Source of the DNA: an uncultured Candidatus Saccharibacteria bacterium
GTDB taxonomy: Bacteria > Patescibacteriota > Minisyncoccia > Phycocordibacterales > DATDWN01
Direction: 5' to 3'
DNA length: 64,000 nt
NCBI GenBank assembly: GCA_964426735.1
Contig: CAYRRP010000003.1
Location: 77,378-141,377 of the forward strand
Part shown: positions 4,556-37,545 of the stretch, in pieces
How positions within the stretch are numbered: the stretch's first letter is position 1
Layout: each line of letters begins with the position of its first letter
The notes under the pieces: generated by a model
The model's database searches: none
What the model was told of the DNA's origin: nothing
Seen by the model: the letters and a program-made list of their open reading frames with translations, nothing else
Program-made: the position numbers and the translations under genes

Positions 4556-5431
4556 CTACTTTCTTATAAATCTTTTTCCATCTGACTCAAACACAATCGT
4601 CCCCTCATCCATCGTCACTAAAATCTCCACGTTGTTACTTTTTAAGGTCTCAAGTGTGGCTTGTTTTGGATGTCCGTATGAATTATCTTTTCCAGCAGAA
4701 ATAATCGCAACCTCCGGACTGACTGCTTTTACAAACTCATCTCCTGTTGATGTGTCTGAACCATGATGCGCCACCTTGAGTATATCGGCATCTACATACT
4801 CTTTATATTGGCTTACAATATACTGCTCTATATTTTTTGTCGTATCACCTGTCAACATAATAGACGTATCTTTATACACAAGTCGTGCAACAAGAGAACC
4901 TTCGTTATGTGACACATCTTCGACATCTCTATCAGGGAAGATAATATCAATATATGCACCTCCTCCAAGCAAAATCTTTTGCCCTGTTCGCCCAATCAAC
5001 ACAGGAATCTCTTGTTCTACAAGAATACGCTTAAATTCTTGATATATTGGATTATTGTCAGCTTTCACACCAGGCTCAAGGACTGCTTCAACATCGTACC
5101 GCGACAGAAGCGGTATAAAACCTTCAAAATGATCCCTATCAGGATTAGTTACGATAATCATGTCTATACTTCTATCAATCAGTGGCATTTGTGTAGCAAC
5201 TTCAGAGACAAGCGCACTGCCTGGTCCACCATCAATCACAACCTGATTGCCTGTCGGTGACTCAATAAAAATAGCATCACCTTGTCCTACATCAAGAAAT
5301 GCAACTCGAAGTGGACGTTCTCGTGTTTGAAATACAAAAAATAATACTGCAATTACACACACAAAAAGTGTAAAGAGTGTATATATTTTCCAATAGGTAT
5401 GGATATTTTCTTTAATCCAGTTTTTATTCAT
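4556..5431 (-). CDS. Stand-alone ComEC/Rec2-type metallo-beta-lactamase domain protein with an N-terminal TM anchor
   Basis: 291 aa. It carries VAFLDVGQGDAIFIESPTGNQVVIDGG, TNPDRDHFEGF and KVAHHGS, as in the C-terminal MBL module of ComEC. Confidence 0.8.
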   Translation of the reverse strand: MNKNWIKENIHTYWKIYTLFTLFVCVIAVLFFVFQTRERPLRVAFLDVGQGDAIFIESPTGNQVVIDGGPGSALVSEVATQMPLIDRSIDMIIVTNPDRDHFEGFIPLLSRYDVEAVLEPGVKADNNPIYQEFKRILVEQEIPVLIGRTGQKILLGGGAYIDIIFPDRDVEDVSHNEGSLVARLVYKDTSIMLTGDTTKNIEQYIVSQYKEYVDADILKVAHHGSDTSTGDEFVKAVSPEVAIISAGKDNSYGHPKQATLETLKSNNVEILVTMDEGTIVFESDGKRFIRK

Positions 5432-6754: not shown

Positions 6755-8307
6755 TATCCCACAACCGAATCATCCCCTGAGCGTGGCTCCGCCACACTCA
6801 GGTTTTGTTTTTTATGAAAACGATAGAGAATGAAACCAAAAACTACATAACATACAACTAACCAAAACACAGGAATGTATGGTACATGAATATTTGCAAA
6901 CGGAAGTTTTGAAACACTTTCCGCAATAAATATATCCCACGAGAGAAGAAGATATGTTGGTATTCCTGGAATCAATCCCAAAAAACGTGAGACGAAGCCA
7001 GCTATCGCCGTACAGAAACCGAGAAGCATGGTCAGTGGTACAAATGGAAGTACGACAAAGTTTGCAGGAAATGCAAACACTCCAAAATTTCCAGACATGT
7101 ACACAATATATGGAAGCACAGAAAACTGAGCTCCCAGTGTGGTTGCAGACAATTCCCTTAGTCCATATTTTTCAGTAATAAAAGAAATATGTTTTAAAAC
7201 AATCGGTGCAACATACATCACACCAATAGTTGCTAACACAGATAGATGGAATGATGGATCATATAACAATATAAATGGATTCCACATAACCATCCCCCAT
7301 ACCGCAAGCAGTAGTGCACGTGACACATTGTACGTCTTATGGAATTGCTTCCCTAAAAGCGCAATACTCGCCATAATACCTGCGCGCACTGCTGAAGCTC
7401 CACTCCCTGCCATCAATACAAAAAATATAACACCAAAAAGTGATGCTCCAAATGCAAAACGTACTGACACATATTTCATTACCACCAAAATACTTTCAGC
7501 AACAACTGTAATGTTATACCCTGACAATACGATAATATGCGAAAGTCCTGCCGTCCTAAACTGATCTGTAATAGTTTTTGGTAATGCATCAGTCCCCAAC
7601 AAAATTCCCGCCAAAAGCCCTGCTTCCGGCTCAGGAACCACATTTCTGATTGACTCTACAAATCGACGCTTTAAACCAAAAAGTATCGTAAGGATACTCT
7701 TGCCCTCTTCTCCTATTTTCTTAATTGATGCAAAAGAGAGTGTGTGCGTAATAGAGTCTTTAAATAGATACATTTGATAATCAAACATTCTTCCATCATC
7801 CGCCTCGATGCGCCCAGGCACACGAAGTGTCCCCGTAGCCACGACATAATCACCGTACGAAAATTCTGGAAATGCATGTGTACTTAAAAGAACACGAGTA
7901 TCGACTTGTTTAGTGGTGCTCCCAAAAGAAACTTTATCTACACGAAGCATGACTTTCTGCTTTTCTCCATCGGAGACCGGCTCACGCACCACCACTCCAT
8001 GAAGGGCTATATTTTTTGATTCTTGTGTAGGTAGATTTTTTATATCAGGATAGGAAATCATAAACACACGCAGCTGACCGACACACAACCCAATAAAAAA
8101 TATAATCAAAAGATGGGAAACTTTTCGGACATCTTCTGTCTTGGAAAATTTTGCATACACACCAAGTACACCCGCACACAAGAAACACGCTACACACAAA
8201 GCAACAGAGAGATGTATGAATGAAACAGCAACCCCTACCAAACTGGAAATAAAAAACAGTAACATACTGTTACCGTTTCTTAAACTCACTGATAATATTC
8301 TGCTCAT
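6751..8307 (-). CDS. comEC: ComEC/Rec2 DNA-uptake channel (OB/DUF4131-like N-terminus plus polytopic competence domain, no MBL domain)
   Basis: 518 aa. It has an N-terminal TM pair, then a soluble OB-like segment (HGVVVREPV...YVVATGTLRVP), then about 8 TM helices with LLGTDALP...FRTAGLSHIIVLSGYNI. The start may instead be the internal Met at 8265, which would remove the overlap with rnhA. Confidence 0.85.
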   Translation of the reverse strand: MSRILSVSLRNGNSMLLFFISSLVGVAVSFIHLSVALCVACFLCAGVLGVYAKFSKTEDVRKVSHLLIIFFIGLCVGQLRVFMISYPDIKNLPTQESKNIALHGVVVREPVSDGEKQKVMLRVDKVSFGSTTKQVDTRVLLSTHAFPEFSYGDYVVATGTLRVPGRIEADDGRMFDYQMYLFKDSITHTLSFASIKKIGEEGKSILTILFGLKRRFVESIRNVVPEPEAGLLAGILLGTDALPKTITDQFRTAGLSHIIVLSGYNITVVAESILVVMKYVSVRFAFGASLFGVIFFVLMAGSGASAVRAGIMASIALLGKQFHKTYNVSRALLLAVWGMVMWNPFILLYDPSFHLSVLATIGVMYVAPIVLKHISFITEKYGLRELSATTLGAQFSVLPYIVYMSGNFGVFAFPANFVVLPFVPLTMLLGFCTAIAGFVSRFLGLIPGIPTYLLLSWDIFIAESVSKLPFANIHVPYIPVFWLVVCYVVFGFILYRFHKKQNLSVAEPRSGDDSVVGY

Positions 8308-33153: not shown

Positions 33154-33301
33154 TGGTGCGGGTGGGGAGAATCGGTCACGAGTAATTCTGGTTCCGTCGA
33201 ACCAGAATTCTCTCGACCCCGACTCGCGACCCACTCTGGTGAGCGGGTGCCCCCGCTCCGTCTTTCGATTCCCCATGCAAAGCTCTGCTTTGCTCACCCG
33301 C
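33154..33301 (-). ncRNA. tRNA-flanking structured element, copy R4 (unknown family), with tRNA-Gly-like acceptor ends and an encoded CCA
   Basis: 5' GCGGGUG and 3' CACCCGCA-CCA pair like the neighbouring tRNA-Gly acceptor stem. The interior is homologous to 37390-37496 and 37148-37275, with covarying hairpins. Confidence 0.6.
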
Positions 33302-33353
33302 ACACATATCAAAAAACCGGCATAAAACCGGTTTTTTGATATGTGTGCGGGTG
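33295..33353. repeat. 26-bp perfect inverted repeat joining the tRNA-Gly 3' end to element R4
   Basis: CACCCGCACACATATCAAAAAACCGG (33295-33320), a 7-nt loop, then the exact reverse complement (33328-33353). The inner part is an A6CCGG/CCGGT6 terminator-like hairpin. Confidence 0.95.
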
Positions 33354-33416
33354 GGGAGAATCGAACTCCCGTATACTGCTTGGAAGGCAGTCATTCTACC
33401 ACTAAATTACACCCGC
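33346..33416 (-). tRNA. tRNA-Gly (anticodon UCC)
   Basis: GCGGGTGTAATTTAGTGGTAGAATGACTGCCTTCCAAGCAGTATACGGGAGTTCGATTCTCCCCACCCGCA. This is a 71-nt cloverleaf with anticodon loop CTTCCAA. Confidence 0.95.
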
Positions 33417-35202: not shown

Positions 35203-35499
35203 TTAGCCGGCTTTTTCAGCAGCAATTTGTAACACCATATCAAAATTATCTTCTTTTTGTGCTTTATTCGCTCGTGTAAAACCACACTTTTCACATACTT
35301 GAATAATATTGTATTCACTCCCCTTCTTTTGTATTTCCGTTGGACGCATCAGTCCTCCACATGTTTCCGCTCGATCACCTGGGTCAATATCAACATGTTT
35401 AGACCACAAACACTGTGGGCAATGATTCGTAAAACCATTCCCTACCACAGTTTCTCCGCAGTGTTCACAGACAAAATCTTCAATAGTTCGTTTGAACAT
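35203..35499 (-). CDS. RNHCP-domain zinc-ribbon protein
   Basis: CEHCGETV...TNHCPQCLWSKHVD...CEKCG. The start is set at the internal ATG 35499. Confidence 0.65.
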   Translation of the reverse strand: MFKRTIEDFVCEHCGETVVGNGFTNHCPQCLWSKHVDIDPGDRAETCGGLMRPTEIQKKGSEYNIIQVCEKCGFTRANKAQKEDNFDMVLQIAAEKAG

Positions 35500-35539
35500 A
35501 CACCATGTATAGTAACACAATCAATCCAAAAAAAGCCCC

Positions 35540-36153: not shown

Positions 36154-36226
36154 CGGGGTGTGGTGTAACGGCTAACATGCTTGATTTGGGATCAAGTGAC
36201 TCCGGGTTCGAATCCCGGCACCCCGA
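36154..36226 (+). tRNA. tRNA-Pro (anticodon UGG)
   Basis: CGGGGTG...CTTGATTTGGGATCAAG...CCGGGTTCGAATCCCGGCACCCCGA. This is a 73-nt cloverleaf. Confidence 0.93.
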
Positions 36227-36247
36227 CAATAGATTTTCTAAATACAC

Positions 36248-36673
36248 CTAAAGTATTATATCTTCCAGCATCTTTACCCTACATACTCGTTTTTCTTGAT
36301 CCACATACACCGTAGCTACATCAAACTGCCACTCCGTATCATCTGAGACATTTTTATCAAGCAAATACGACTGTATAGTCCGAGCAAGCCTCTGGAGTTT
36401 CCATGGGTGCATATTATCCTCTGGCCGATACCTATTATTCGTTTCACGTGGCACATCTTCAAACTTTCTCGATACACTCTTCACCTCAACAAAGTGAATT
36501 TTTTTGTCCTTTATAGCTACCACATCCAATTCTCCCCACTTTTTTAAATAGTTACGATCAGTCACCTTAAAACCTTTTCTCTTAAGATACGTACACACCG
36601 CTTCTTCCCCAATTGCACCCAATATCTGTTTTTGGGTTTTAGTATGAACCTTCAATGCAGCTTTTTCTCTCAT
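36248..36673 (-). CDS. YraN-family (UPF0102) endonuclease-like protein
   Basis: GEEAVCTYLKRKGFKVTDRNY...GELDVVA...HFVEVKS. The start is set at ATG 36673 (TATACT lies 8 nt upstream). Confidence 0.8.
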   Translation of the reverse strand: MREKAALKVHTKTQKQILGAIGEEAVCTYLKRKGFKVTDRNYLKKWGELDVVAIKDKKIHFVEVKSVSRKFEDVPRETNNRYRPEDNMHPWKLQRLARTIQSYLLDKNVSDDTEWQFDVATVYVDQEKRVCRVKMLEDIIL

Positions 36674-36713
36674 ACATATATAGTATACAAGCTTAATCCT
36701 TTCACGTGTAACT

Positions 36714-36745
36714 ATATTATATGTTACATATGTAACATATAATAT
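36714..36745. repeat. 32-bp perfect AT-rich palindrome
   Basis: ATATTATATGTTACAT|ATGTAACATATAATAT, verified base by base. It lies upstream of the yraN-like gene. Confidence 0.95.
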
Positions 36746-36870
36746 TTGAGTAGGTACAGGAGGATTCGTAGTATAAAGTACACAATTTCCTTTGTATAAA
36801 GCCATTTTTGGAGACTTTTGGACACAAAGTCTTATACTTTGAAGCCTGTCAAAGACTGTCTCTAATACAC

Positions 36871-36891
36871 ATGTCCACAGACTTATCCACA
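36871..36891 (+). promoter_or_regulatory. DnaA-box-like sites (one consensus TTATCCACA plus an adjacent ATGTCCACA)
   Basis: TTATCCACA at 36883-36891 and ATGTCCACA at 36871-36879. A related TTGTCCCACA lies at 36936-36945. Confidence 0.4.
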
Positions 36892-37027
36892 GTTTTCAAC
36901 ATATTTTGTGTAAAACTGACTTTAATTTAAAGACTTTGTCCCACAGAATAGGGGTTTAATGGAGACAGTCCGTGATCAAATAGACAAAACTTGGCAAAAG
37001 CTAGAAAAAAGGTATGATACATATATT

Positions 37028-37101
37028 GCACCCGTAGCTCAATTGGATAGAGTATTTGTCTTCGGAACAAAGGGTTGCAGGTTCGAGTCCTGCCGGGTGC
37101 A
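37028..37101 (+). tRNA. tRNA-Arg (anticodon UCG)
   Basis: GCACCCGTAGCTCAATTGGATAGAGT...TTTGTCTTCGGAACAAA...GCAGGTTCGAGTCCTGCCGGGTGCA, 74 nt. A TTGGCA-16-TATGAT promoter lies upstream, and an A6TCCCAA/TTGGGAT6 terminator lies downstream. Confidence 0.95.
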
Positions 37102-37147
37102 CACGACAAAAAATCCCAACTGCTTGGGATTTTTTGCTACGTGTGCA

Positions 37148-37275
37148 CAACGGAGACATGTTTTTTCAGCAGAAAAAAAGGTCGAGTTGTGGACCGAAGG
37201 AAATTTCAATTCGACGGAATTGAAATTATCCGAAGTGTACAAGACAAAACCCTATGTATTTGAATTTCTCCCCAC
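37148..37275 (+). ncRNA. tRNA-flanking structured element, copy R6 (AT-shifted paralog)
   Basis: CGGAG (37151-37155). P3 is TTTTTTC[AGCA]GAAAAAA (37161-37178). GGTCGAG (37180-37186). P4 is AAATTTCAATTC[GACG]GAATTGAAATT (37201-37227). The tail is ATTTCTCCCCAC (37264-37275). Confidence 0.5.
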
Positions 37276-37296
37276 TTTGTGTAAAATGAAGGGGAA

Positions 37297-37367
37297 GCGG
37301 CTATGGTTTAGTGGTAGAACACGTCCTTGCCAAGGATGAGATTCGGGTTCGATTCCCGGTAGCCGCA
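37297..37367 (+). tRNA. tRNA-Gly (anticodon GCC)
   Basis: GCGGCTATGGTTTAGTGGTAGAACACGTCCTTGCCAAGGATGAGATTCGGGTTCGATTCCCGGTAGCCGCA, 71 nt. Confidence 0.95.
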
Positions 37368-37389
37368 CAGAAAAATCGGAGATTTTTAT

Positions 37390-37496
37390 CCGGGAATCGA
37401 AAGCCGGAGCGAGGGTTCCCGTCAGCAGACGGGACCGCGAGGCCGGGTCGGGAAATTTTACGAGTGGCGACGAGTAAAATATTCCTGACCGATTCC
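37390..37496 (+). ncRNA. tRNA-flanking structured element, copy R5
   Basis: CCGGGAATCGAAAGCCGGAGCGAGGG..CCCGTC[AGCA]GACGGG..GCGAGGCCGGGTCGGG..TTTTACGAGT[GGCG]ACGAGTAAAA..GACCGATTCC. The closing helix is GGAATCG/CGATTCC. Confidence 0.6.
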
Positions 37497-37545
37497 AGTG
37501 CCCATACTCATAAATAAGGCCTCCAAAAGCCTTAAAATCACTCAT

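Follow-up and report, generated by a model that had tools for sequence, protein, structure and literature searches.

The locus examined here raises the question of what lies directly behind its tRNA genes. Within a 64,000-nt stretch of contig CAYRRP010000003.1 (the window; assembly GCA_964426735.1, deposited as an uncultured Candidatus Saccharibacteria bacterium), an initial annotation had described three paralogous, structured, tRNA-flanking RNA elements of no known family, here called R4, R5 and R6. Comparison with related sequences indicates that the three are members of a large, modular, non-coding family, apparently new in kind. Its members are found in Patescibacteria on the 3' side of genes with a tRNA-type T-arm at their end, those for tRNA and transfer-messenger RNA (tmRNA).

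Four tRNA genes were found in the window by ARAGORN and Rfam, and three of them have an element behind them on their own strand (Table 1), so that the tRNA adjacency of the three elements is as first described. A covariance model (R1) was built from 25 homologues and run unfiltered over the whole 64 kb. It recovered exactly three copies, and the next match scored 11.8 bits (E 0.5). R4 and R5 are intact three-way junctions. R6 is a degenerate copy; in the R1 alignment its P3 hairpin and upper P4 helix are intact, and the canonical closing helix P1 and the base of P4 are lost or mispaired. Folding against shuffled sequences gave z values of -7.8, -4.1 and -5.3 for the three elements. The 19-nt block common to R4 and R5, GGAATCGAAAGNCGGAGCG, occurs twice in the window compared with 0.03 expected occurrences. 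The GC content is 0.59 in R4 and R5 and 0.41 in R6, against 0.39 for the window as a whole. The cca gene of the window is 72-93% identical to its counterparts in Candidatus Zambryskibacteria and other Paceibacteria metagenome-assembled genomes (MAGs).

Single-sequence folds of 59 members share one common structure, a three-way junction in which about 30 bases of the junction and internal loops are nearly invariant, one G.U pair is invariant and the P3 and P4 arms vary. P1 (GGAAUCG/CGAUUCC) is followed by the joining segment J1/2, (G)AAA, and by P2, which has three base pairs (G-N-C/G-N'-C) whose middle pair occurs in all four Watson-Crick forms. An internal loop (GGA/GA) separates P2 from P2b (GCG/CGC), which carries the variable hairpin P3, and a GG linker after P3 leads to P4, a long helix (GGUCG.../...UGACC) with the invariant G.U and an apex that often reads GAGYGRCGRCGA. 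The conserved strands of this core, referred to as type 1, are AAAG-NCGGAGCG / CGCGAGN'C-GGGUCG / GUGACC, together with tandem G.A motifs (GAGC..GCGA) in P2b and at the P4 apex. Elements range in size from 75 nt to more than 230 nt, with insertions in P3, P4 and the P1 3' strand.

Covariation supports this fold. RNAalifold found compensatory changes in 24 of 35 pairs in an independent MAFFT alignment of 25 sequences. In an alignment of 139 sequences, which was fitted to R1 and is hence biased toward the structure, 93.9% of cells were paired and all 35 pairs showed double changes; the independent MAFFT alignment agrees. Shuffled controls were 67.3% paired, none of 500 shuffles reaching 93.9%, and slid partners gave at most 46%. 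Among the 139 sequences G.U or U.G cells numbered 241 compared with 39 A.C or C.A cells, and the tRNA-sense strand is therefore the folding strand. These data show that the core is under clear purifying and structural selection, and that this selection is strand-specific. They bear out the view of R4, R5 and R6 as real, structured and covarying, with P3, P4 and the closing helix as comparatively supported helices. Two details of the original description did not hold. The helix GUCGCGAGU/ACUCGUGAC proposed for R4 is not a conserved pairing, as ACUCGUGACC pairs with GGUCGAGAG to form the P4 base, and the apex of P4, which had been likened to tmRNA, is merely a variable GACG/GGCG/AGCA loop. The pattern of conservation, with invariant junctions, tandem-G.A hairpins and tolerated peripheral insertions, would fit either a protein-binding RNA or a small ribozyme.

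A pattern scan with GGAATCGAAAGNCGGAGCG against genome contigs, one genome per species, returned at least 119 loci, nearly all from Patescibacteria MAGs. The clades among the matches listed were Zambryski-, Kaiser-, Taylor-, Nomura-, Adler-, Campbell-, Niyogi-, Yanofsky- and Moranbacteria and 'Paceibacterota'; many Third Party Annotation (TPA) assemblies among these matches are labelled Saccharibacteria, and about 12 of the matches listed are obvious chance occurrences in GC-rich genomes. The R1 search found 139 copies in 100 sources. No Rfam 15 family lay over R4, R5 or R6 in a search of the window region at the gathering threshold and at E<=10, and 15 homologous loci searched at the gathering threshold gave tRNA and tmRNA matches only. 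Literature searches found no description of the element; a paper on group I introns in Patescibacteria tRNA genes concerns position 35/36, a different matter. The search of relatives and of Rfam by covariance model, which the initial annotation had proposed, thus extends the family and leaves its standing as an unknown family intact. A search of a viral contig collection with the type-1 core pattern gave 0 matches. Some members (in loci L027, L031, L039, L049 and L053; homologous loci are numbered with L) lie on contigs that binning placed in MAGs of Elusimicrobia, Bdellovibrionales or Gammaproteobacteria, and either mis-binned Patescibacteria or real occurrences are possible in these cases.

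Linkage to tRNA genes is the most general property of the family. A same-strand tRNA ends 20-93 nt upstream in 96 of 140 copies, representing 31 anticodon types. Another 8 follow a further copy of the element and 10 are at contig ends; most of the remaining copies follow tmRNA (Rfam-confirmed in L024, L035, L063 and L077), and others follow tRNAs missed by ARAGORN. To remove ascertainment bias, the frequency of elements was estimated only from tRNAs that were not responsible for retrieval of their locus, and 25 of 97 such tRNAs (26%) had an R1-detectable copy. The three elements of the window do belong to one family, as the term paralogues implied, but R6 is a decaying remnant, and the family sits behind at least about a quarter of tRNA genes. 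Tabulation of flanking genes, also proposed initially, gave tRNA or tmRNA upstream and mixed features downstream, the next feature being a same-strand open reading frame (ORF) in 47 cases, an opposite-strand ORF in 32 and a tRNA in 22. This mixture argues strongly against the earlier suggestion that the elements are cis-regulators of downstream genes. In L036 and L061 the elements follow a sequence ending ...AGGTTCGAGC..GTATA(A/G)(T/G)GTCA that was not called by ARAGORN and may be an intron-containing or aberrant tRNA-Glu. In L032, about 45 nt of the tRNA-Ile 3' half (AATGACGAGGTCTCAGGTTCGATTCCTGATACGCCCACA) are duplicated in tandem, with copies about 60 nt apart, upstream of the element at 7468-7648 (-); the two copies are like a classical attL/attR pair of an integrated element beside a family member.

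The arms that close the core are copied from the host gene. The right arm, from the P1 3' strand onward, repeats the upstream gene directly between T-loop C56 and the discriminator; its 18 nt are identical to the tRNA in 23/71 cases, and of the 13 nt that come after the constant CGATTC all agree in 41/96 and 10 or more in 60/96. The copy runs on into the trailer in L004, L020, L027, L039, L097 and L098. The left arm is the reverse complement of positions 54-65 of the neighbouring gene and tracks its T-loop variants. T-loops TTCGAATCC, TTCGAGTCC, TTCAAGTCC and TTCAATTCC are accompanied by left arms GGATTCGAA, GGACTCGAA, GGACTTGAA and GGAATTGAA, respectively, and the P1 5' strand follows the T-loop as GGATTCG, GGACTCG, GGACTTG or GGAATTG. 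The reverse complement of positions 54-65, with at most two mismatches, is present downstream of 84/97 element-bearing tRNAs as compared to 7/184 control flanks. The initial annotation missed this origin of the closing helix from inverted and direct copies of the host gene between T-loop and 3' end, as well as the tmRNA hosts and the decay of R6.

The left arm often complements the acceptor 3' strand and trailer as well. About 40% of units have an acceptor-like strand, set apart from the T-stem-like strand by a GC-rich hairpin (HP) with an apex that is often CAACUGCUUG. An acceptor-5'-like strand complementary to the tRNA acceptor 3' strand was found at a fixed offset in 28/74 units, compared with 10.9 +/- 2.8 in permuted controls. 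A general acceptor-like stem formed with the right arm was considered and rejected, since a free search was indistinguishable from permuted controls and only the pairing with the tRNA's own strand at the fixed offset was significant. The idea that an encoded CCA is general, as expected of a tRNA-like 3' end or a retro-copied mature tRNA, was likewise rejected, with CC or CCA barely enriched after the copy. Among cases of right-arm divergence from the tRNA at positions 63-65, left-arm bases can pair exclusively with the tRNA in 25 and exclusively with the right arm in 2. Because the arms show no mutual covariation beyond P1, they are host-gene copies that decay independently and not selected pairs. 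P1, with its 7 bp, is the sole portion of the arms that is kept.

The two intact copies of the window differ in how much of the host gene they retain. R4 reads GCGGGUG, hairpin, GGGG-AAUCG, core, CGAUU-CUCCC-CACCCGC-A-CCA, an order that looks like the 'top half' of a tRNA. The statement that no acceptor is present was therefore wrong for R4, where GCGGGUG/CACCCGC is followed by A and CCA; the host gene does not encode CCA and ends ...CACCCGC-A-CAC. A 7-bp acceptor stem, discriminator and CCA are present in R4 and some homologues and absent in R5 and R6, and the left flank of R5 has the T-stem-like part alone, with no acceptor-like strand. The inner part of the palindrome H1 next to R4 (A-tract, CCGG, U-tract) looks like a bidirectional terminator. 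The loop CAACUGCUUG of the hairpin trailing tRNA-Arg also occurs in the HP hairpins of many homologues. The motif AUU(U)CUCCCCAC, thought to be shared by R4 and R6, is not homologous between them. Its R4 version belongs to the copy of the tRNA-Gly-UCC 3' end, and its R6 version is the -35 element and spacer of the tRNA-Gly-GCC promoter, kept where R6 has been lost.

Table 1. Coordinates of the tRNA genes, elements and neighbouring features in the window.
Feature	Position	Strand	Evidence and remarks
tRNA-Gly-UCC	33345-33416	-	R4 host; ARAGORN; Rfam tRNA 73.7 bits
tRNA-Pro-UGG	36154-36227	+	ARAGORN, Rfam
tRNA-Arg-UCG	37028-37102	+	R6 host; ARAGORN, Rfam
tRNA-Gly-GCC	37297-37368	+	R5 host; ARAGORN, Rfam
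H1, perfect 26-bp palindrome	33295-33353	-	sequence; arms are tRNA acceptor 3' strand and trailer (33353-33328) and inverted copy (33320-33295); loop UUUUAUG
R4 left flank	33275-33305	-	fold prediction
R4 acceptor-5'-like strand GCGGGUG	33301-33295	-	extended to 33305 against trailer
R4 HP hairpin GCAAAGC-AGA-GCUUUGC	33293-33277	-	after the GCGGGUG strand
R4 core, three-way junction	33168-33272	-	R1 99.5 bits, E 1e-25; intact
R4 P1 5' strand GGAAUCG	33272-33266	-	
R4 P2/P2b/P3	33262-33221	-	
R4 P4	33218-33174	-	
R4 P1 3' strand CGAUUCU	33174-33168	-	
R4 right arm	33154-33174	-	direct copy of tRNA-Gly-UCC C56-A73, 18/18 identical, then CCA
Hairpin behind tRNA-Arg, AAAAAAUCCCAACUGCUUGGGAUUUUUU	37103-37147	+	flanked by inverted tRNA 3'-end copy GUGCAC
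R6, degenerate copy	37143-37240	+	R1 29.6 bits, E 5e-6
tRNA-Gly-GCC promoter-like site, TTGAAT	37260-37265	+	TTGAAT-16-TAAAAT
tRNA-Gly-GCC promoter-like site, TAAAAT	37282-37287	+	
R5 spacer	37369-37392	+	small hairpin AAAAAUC-GGA-GAUUUUU (37371-37387), then left-arm start
R5 left arm, CCGGGAAUCGAA	37390-37401	+	reverse complement of tRNA positions 54-65; 12 contiguous
R5 core, three-way junction	37393-37496	+	R1 101 bits, E 4e-26; intact
R5 P1 5' strand	37393-37399	+	
R5 P2/P3	37403-37443	+	P3 = CCCGUC[AGCA]GACGGG
R5 P4	37446-37490	+	
R5 P1 3' strand CGAUUCC	37490-37496	+	
R5 right-arm remainder, decayed	37497-37507	+	AGUGCCCAUAC vs tRNA CGGUAGCCGCA; 9/18 identity
cca start codon	37546	+	downstream of R5 right-arm remainder; gene assigned by Pfam
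RNHCP-domain gene	35203-35520	-	
UPF0102/NERD gene	36248-36805	-	
AT-rich perfect palindrome, TATATTATATGTTACATATGTAACATATAATAT	36700-36745		overlaps UPF0102/NERD gene 5' end
Non-coding region upstream of tRNA-Arg	36806-37027		about 220 nt
Perfect DnaA box, TTATCCACA	36883-36891		

Some tRNAs without an R1 match nevertheless have an inverted T-loop copy behind them, and in these cases different cores lie between the same kind of arms. A type 2 core (CAGAUUC...GAAUCUG, with an AC bulge in P1) is found behind tRNA-Arg-UCG in L120 (75-180), L123 (4341-4442) and L126 (about 5230-5330), the position occupied by R6 in the window. It reads CGGAUUG/CAGAUUC..GGUCUACG..hairpin..CAAUCC/GAAUCUG plus a P4-like arm; the AC bulge is conserved, and P1 tracks the T-loop difference among relatives (GAUUC in L123, GAGUC in L120 and L126). 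A type 3 core (AAGGUU..hairpin..AACCUGUACUGA, a small GUAA hairpin, AUUCC), missed by the type-1 model, is found behind tRNAs for Tyr, Leu, Val and Trp, as in L003 (tRNA-Tyr), L010 (tRNA-Leu-UAG), L011 (tRNA-Val-UAC), L100 (tRNA-Trp and tRNA-Tyr) and L076. At least two further core forms exist. Sub-modules recur across types and within elements, including the GAGC...GCGA tandem-G.A hairpin, the GUAA/GUAC hairpin in the P1 3' strand and the P4 apex. Tandem or partial second units follow the first element in L004, L027, L099, L054, L121 and L122, some of them consisting of a P4-like hairpin AAAUAUGUGAGCGACGGCGAACAUAUU alone and then another TTCGATTC copy. Their arrangement suggests repeated events at one T-loop-like site or unequal crossing-over between repeats.

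Orthologous loci, retrieved through cca homologues of 81-93% identity, differ in which elements they contain. R5, behind tRNA-Gly-GCC, is present in the window, L120/L054 (93%), L124/L093 (88%) and L125 (84%), reduced to its arms in L121 (90%), and absent in L126 (89%), L122 (87%) and L123 (81%). At the tRNA-Arg site, R6 is degenerate in the window, fuller in L121, reduced to its first ~18 nt in L124/L093 and absent in L122, and L120/L054, L126 and L123 carry the type 2 core. R4 is present behind tRNA-Gly-UCC in the window, L120/L054, L121 and L122 and absent in L123, where only a plain terminator hairpin follows the tRNA. The intact R5 orthologues (L120, L124/L093 and L125) show compensatory changes in P3. 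In L121 the R5 core is gone and both arms are left as GAGATCGAAA-ATCGATTCCCTGTACCGCCA, the right arm (CGATTCCCTGTACCGCCA) being a better copy than that of the window. L123 and L126, which are without R5, have a different tRNA-Gly allele. What follows the tRNA in the R5-less alleles is homologous to what follows the right arm in the filled ones, so that the whole from spacer through left arm and core to right arm behaves as a single insertion. The region is rearranged in L122, with tRNA-Arg and tRNA-Gly-GCC on the other strand and without R5 or R6.

Cores also change places. The tRNA-Arg core of L121 and the tRNA-Gly-UCC core of L122 are identical at 39 of the first 42 nt and at 69/87 overall, and the two cores at the orthologous Gly-UCC site agree at only 57/104. 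These comparisons show a slow turnover in which close relatives gain and lose cores and exchange them between tRNA loci, and R6 is a remnant that is being deleted in relatives. Recent intragenomic spread was rejected, as copies are 0.45 identical within a genome and 0.44 between genomes. Strict co-inheritance of a core with one tRNA type was rejected as well; the nearest relative is behind the same type in 13/95 cases vs 4.1 expected, which is a weak signal.

No promoter-like site was found in the window between the tRNAs and R4, R5 or R6, and no terminator-like site was found between tRNA-Gly-GCC and R5. Promoter-like sites are present upstream of tRNA-Arg and tRNA-Gly-GCC, and expression of the elements is therefore most simply explained as an extension of the tRNA transcript. 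The best reading of the data taken together, which we put forward tentatively, is that of an RNA module that spreads by recombination and piggy-backs on tRNA transcripts. An element consists of left arm, core and right arm, and the arms, which are copied from the local gene, would contribute nothing to it beyond the 7-bp P1 clamp around the core. The unit would be transcribed on the tRNA-sense strand as a read-through product or 3'-trailer extension and would be released from the tRNA by the normal tRNA 3'-end nucleases, which may also use the acceptor-like end of R4-type copies. The core would then act as RNA, most probably as a module that binds a putative protein partner. New copies and core exchange could arise through recombination or template switching at the near-universal T-loop sequence, which is present in every tRNA, inverted in every left arm and direct in every right arm, and could thus provide the homology for template switching or illegitimate recombination. 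Such T-loop-based events would create locally matching arms and would swap cores with the arms left in place, which fits the arm copies and the core exchange that are seen. The interpretation in the initial annotation is partly supported, and among its alternatives a tRNA-linked mobile RNA element comes closest to the comparative data.

Several observations weigh against a mobile module that is expressed with the tRNA. A terminator-like hairpin and T-run lie between tRNA and element in 36/90 homologue spacers (about 40%), and co-transcription there would therefore need read-through. Since two copies from one genome resemble each other no more closely than copies of separate genomes do, any spread must be slow. 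The acceptor-like strand pairs with the right arm in 13 cases, only weakly above the 7.5 +/- 2.4 of permuted controls, and an acceptor and CCA end like that of R4 is not general; CCA follows the copy in R4, L047, L086 and others. A role of the same strand as single-stranded DNA may also be compatible with the sequences. An additional expectation, that a terminator always follows the element, was rejected, with a same-strand terminator in only 26/118 cases.

The main rival, which we regard as unlikely, is a miniature integrative DNA element whose attachment site contains the tRNA or tmRNA 3' segment and is recombined within the T-loop by a tyrosine recombinase supplied in trans, with the two arms folding into the stem of a single-stranded attP that imitates the target, as in CTX-phage attP(+) or integron attC. 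Both the choice of targets and the layout of the repeats are well accounted for by this model. The targets are exactly the classical ones, tRNA plus tmRNA, the duplication runs from a fixed T-loop point (C56) to just beyond the gene end, a direct repeat of the gene's 3' part bounds the element as in integrative elements, and a T / inverted-T / T layout is expected from an integrating circle with an inverted repeat. The presence/absence polymorphism, the 'arms only' site in L121 and the tandem and partial units in L004, L027, L054 and L099 are also as expected. However, the elements are 100-250 bp long with no ORF inside any of them and no linked integrase, the nearby integrase genes being syntenic, Xer-like housekeeping genes several kb away. 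The lack of viral matches to the type-1 pattern and of near-identical recent copies within a genome argues in the same direction, as do the ~30 conserved junction bases, the invariant G.U and the strand-specific wobbles, which look like selected RNA. In addition, the arms match many tRNAs, so that a separate attP specificity would be needed for each. A less probable proposal keeps mobility at the RNA level and views the family as a parasite or symbiont of T-arm genes, whose catalytic or protein-guiding core would recognize the T-loop through the anti-T-loop strand and direct its own copying behind the gene, making inverted and direct target copies. If true, this would be a new target-templated, protein-gene-free form of mobility confined to Patescibacteria.

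Explanations by local function are weaker still. In a cis-acting switch on the upstream tRNA, which we think distinctly improbable, the left arm would pair with the tRNA 3' half in read-through RNA, blocking its folding or making an RNase III site, and right arm and core would compete and release the tRNA. The left arm does complement positions 54-65, and its complementarity extends in many loci as far as the discriminator and trailer, with 18-28 contiguous pairs in L056, L020, L014, L068 and L011 and 26 bp in R4, and it always reaches U54, including two A residues that are unpaired with the right arm. Complementarity at positions 63-65 is only 74%, however, and the right arm resembles the tRNA without covarying with the left arm, which copying explains and a pairing requirement does not. 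R5-type copies retain the core while both extended arms decay, and the tRNA would probably fold before the arm is transcribed. Equally doubtful is a new self-cleaving or self-ligating ribozyme core that trims tRNA trailers or aids its own propagation. The three-way junction, with its conserved junction strands and variable, insertion-tolerant peripheral stems, is small-ribozyme-like, and there are many copies per genome in varied contexts, but no likeness to any Rfam ribozyme family was found at E up to 10, several core types occupy the same position, and the sequences point to no cleavage site. Hammerhead, hairpin, twister, kink-turn/box C/D, 5S rRNA and T-box were also considered and rejected, with their defining motifs absent by eye and no Rfam support. 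We give very little weight to a 5' leader or riboswitch of the downstream genes. On the same strand, cca follows R5 at a distance of 50 nt and a class-I glutamine amidotransferase gene follows R4 at about 60 nt, and the order tRNA-Gly-R5-cca is kept in several Zambryskibacteria, but cca is kept without R5 in L121, L123 and L126, and across the family the downstream features are mixed as given above.

The family shares single features with several known systems and fails the defining tests of each. Williams, writing in Nucleic Acids Res in 2002, is said to have described attachment-site duplications of phages and islands in tRNA and tmRNA genes, with a T-loop sublocation. The elements resemble such phages and islands in their targets, in lying behind an intact gene and in a direct repeat of the 3' part that starts in the T-loop. 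They differ in their small size, in having no genes and no linked integrase, in the extra inverted copy and in a covarying, strand-specific, RNA-type fold; the viral contig collection yielded no match to the pattern tested. Folded single-strand recombination sites are known as CTX-phage attP(+) and integron attC. Here too there are two inverted target-like copies ~75-110 nt apart, a stem that mimics the chromosomal target and a strand-specific structure, whereas recombinase and cargo are lacking, the intervening 'loop' is highly conserved with RNA-like covariation, and the element is always co-oriented with the transcribed tRNA. Bacterial non-autonomous repeats that fold as RNA include miniature inverted-repeat transposable elements (MITEs), such as the Correia elements of Neisseria, and repetitive extragenic palindromic (REP) sequences and bacterial interspersed mosaic elements (BIMEs). 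Like these, the family is short, non-coding, multi-copy and intergenic, with stem-forming inverted-repeat ends and presence/absence polymorphism; unlike them, its 'terminal repeats' are locus-specific tRNA copies, its copies are old and dissimilar, and the interior rather than the ends is conserved. Derivation from a MITE or transposon was rejected on these grounds, as each locus has its own arms, which match the tRNA beside it, and identity is no higher within genomes than between them.

Small RNAs linked to tRNA genes offer another comparison. Like tRNA-small nucleolar RNA (snoRNA) genes, mascRNA/MALAT1 and gammaherpesvirus tRNA-microRNA units, the elements place a structured small RNA directly behind a tRNA or tRNA-like unit, and the lack of a promoter-like site of their own would suggest expression and release via the tRNA pathway. 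Those examples are eukaryotic or viral single genes, whereas the present family is bacterial and multi-copy, with a closing helix copied from the adjoining tRNA. Plant dicistronic tRNA-snoRNA genes are cited in PMC12045711 (refs 66-67). The same paper defines the tandem interspaced guide RNA (TIGR) type by a C box (RUGAUGA) and a D box (CUGA) that flank the guide, in tandem arrays beside a gene for a Nop-domain protein. A box C/D- or TIGR-type guide RNA was rejected for the present elements, in which tandem G.A is present but C box, 36-nt array and adjacent Tas gene are not. No tRNA cloverleaf was found on R4, R5 or R6 by ARAGORN or Rfam, which found only the four true tRNAs, and ARAGORN found no tmRNA in the window. 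For tmRNA, including the permuted form (RF00023, RF04321), the only match was one of the permuted-tmRNA model, at 18.7 bits against a gathering score of 47 (E 0.8), over the tRNA-Gly 3' end and hairpin, and membership was rejected. R4 has G3-C70, and the true tmRNA genes are hosts of family members.

Patescibacteria genomes are among the smallest and most streamlined, yet at least about a quarter of the tRNA genes, plus the tmRNA gene, carry a 100-250-nt, GC-rich, structured appendix. Should this be an RNA with a cellular role, tRNA biology over a large section of the bacterial tree would have a major component that is not annotated; should it be a selfish module, it would give non-coding sequence a novel means of persistence and movement, with the universally conserved T-loop as its handle. 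The family also explains tRNA 3'-fragment 'pseudogenes' and long palindromes beside tRNA genes in these MAGs. A covariance model is ready for use, and 77-nt minimal members together with R4 and R5 offer a clear experimental system.

Some further features of the window lie between R4 and R6. The non-coding region upstream of tRNA-Arg, which contains the perfect DnaA box, is kept in L126. A cluster of DnaA boxes at this site was considered and dropped, because the window has 30 DnaA-like boxes vs 21 expected and is not enriched. The AT-rich palindrome lies close by (Table 1). The interval as a whole is variable in relatives. Its RNHCP-domain and UPF0102/NERD genes are kept in L121-L126, and genes for NUDIX, YafQ/RelB toxin-antitoxin, TrmB and Exo_endo_phos proteins come and go. 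Recombination is active across the neighbourhood as a whole.

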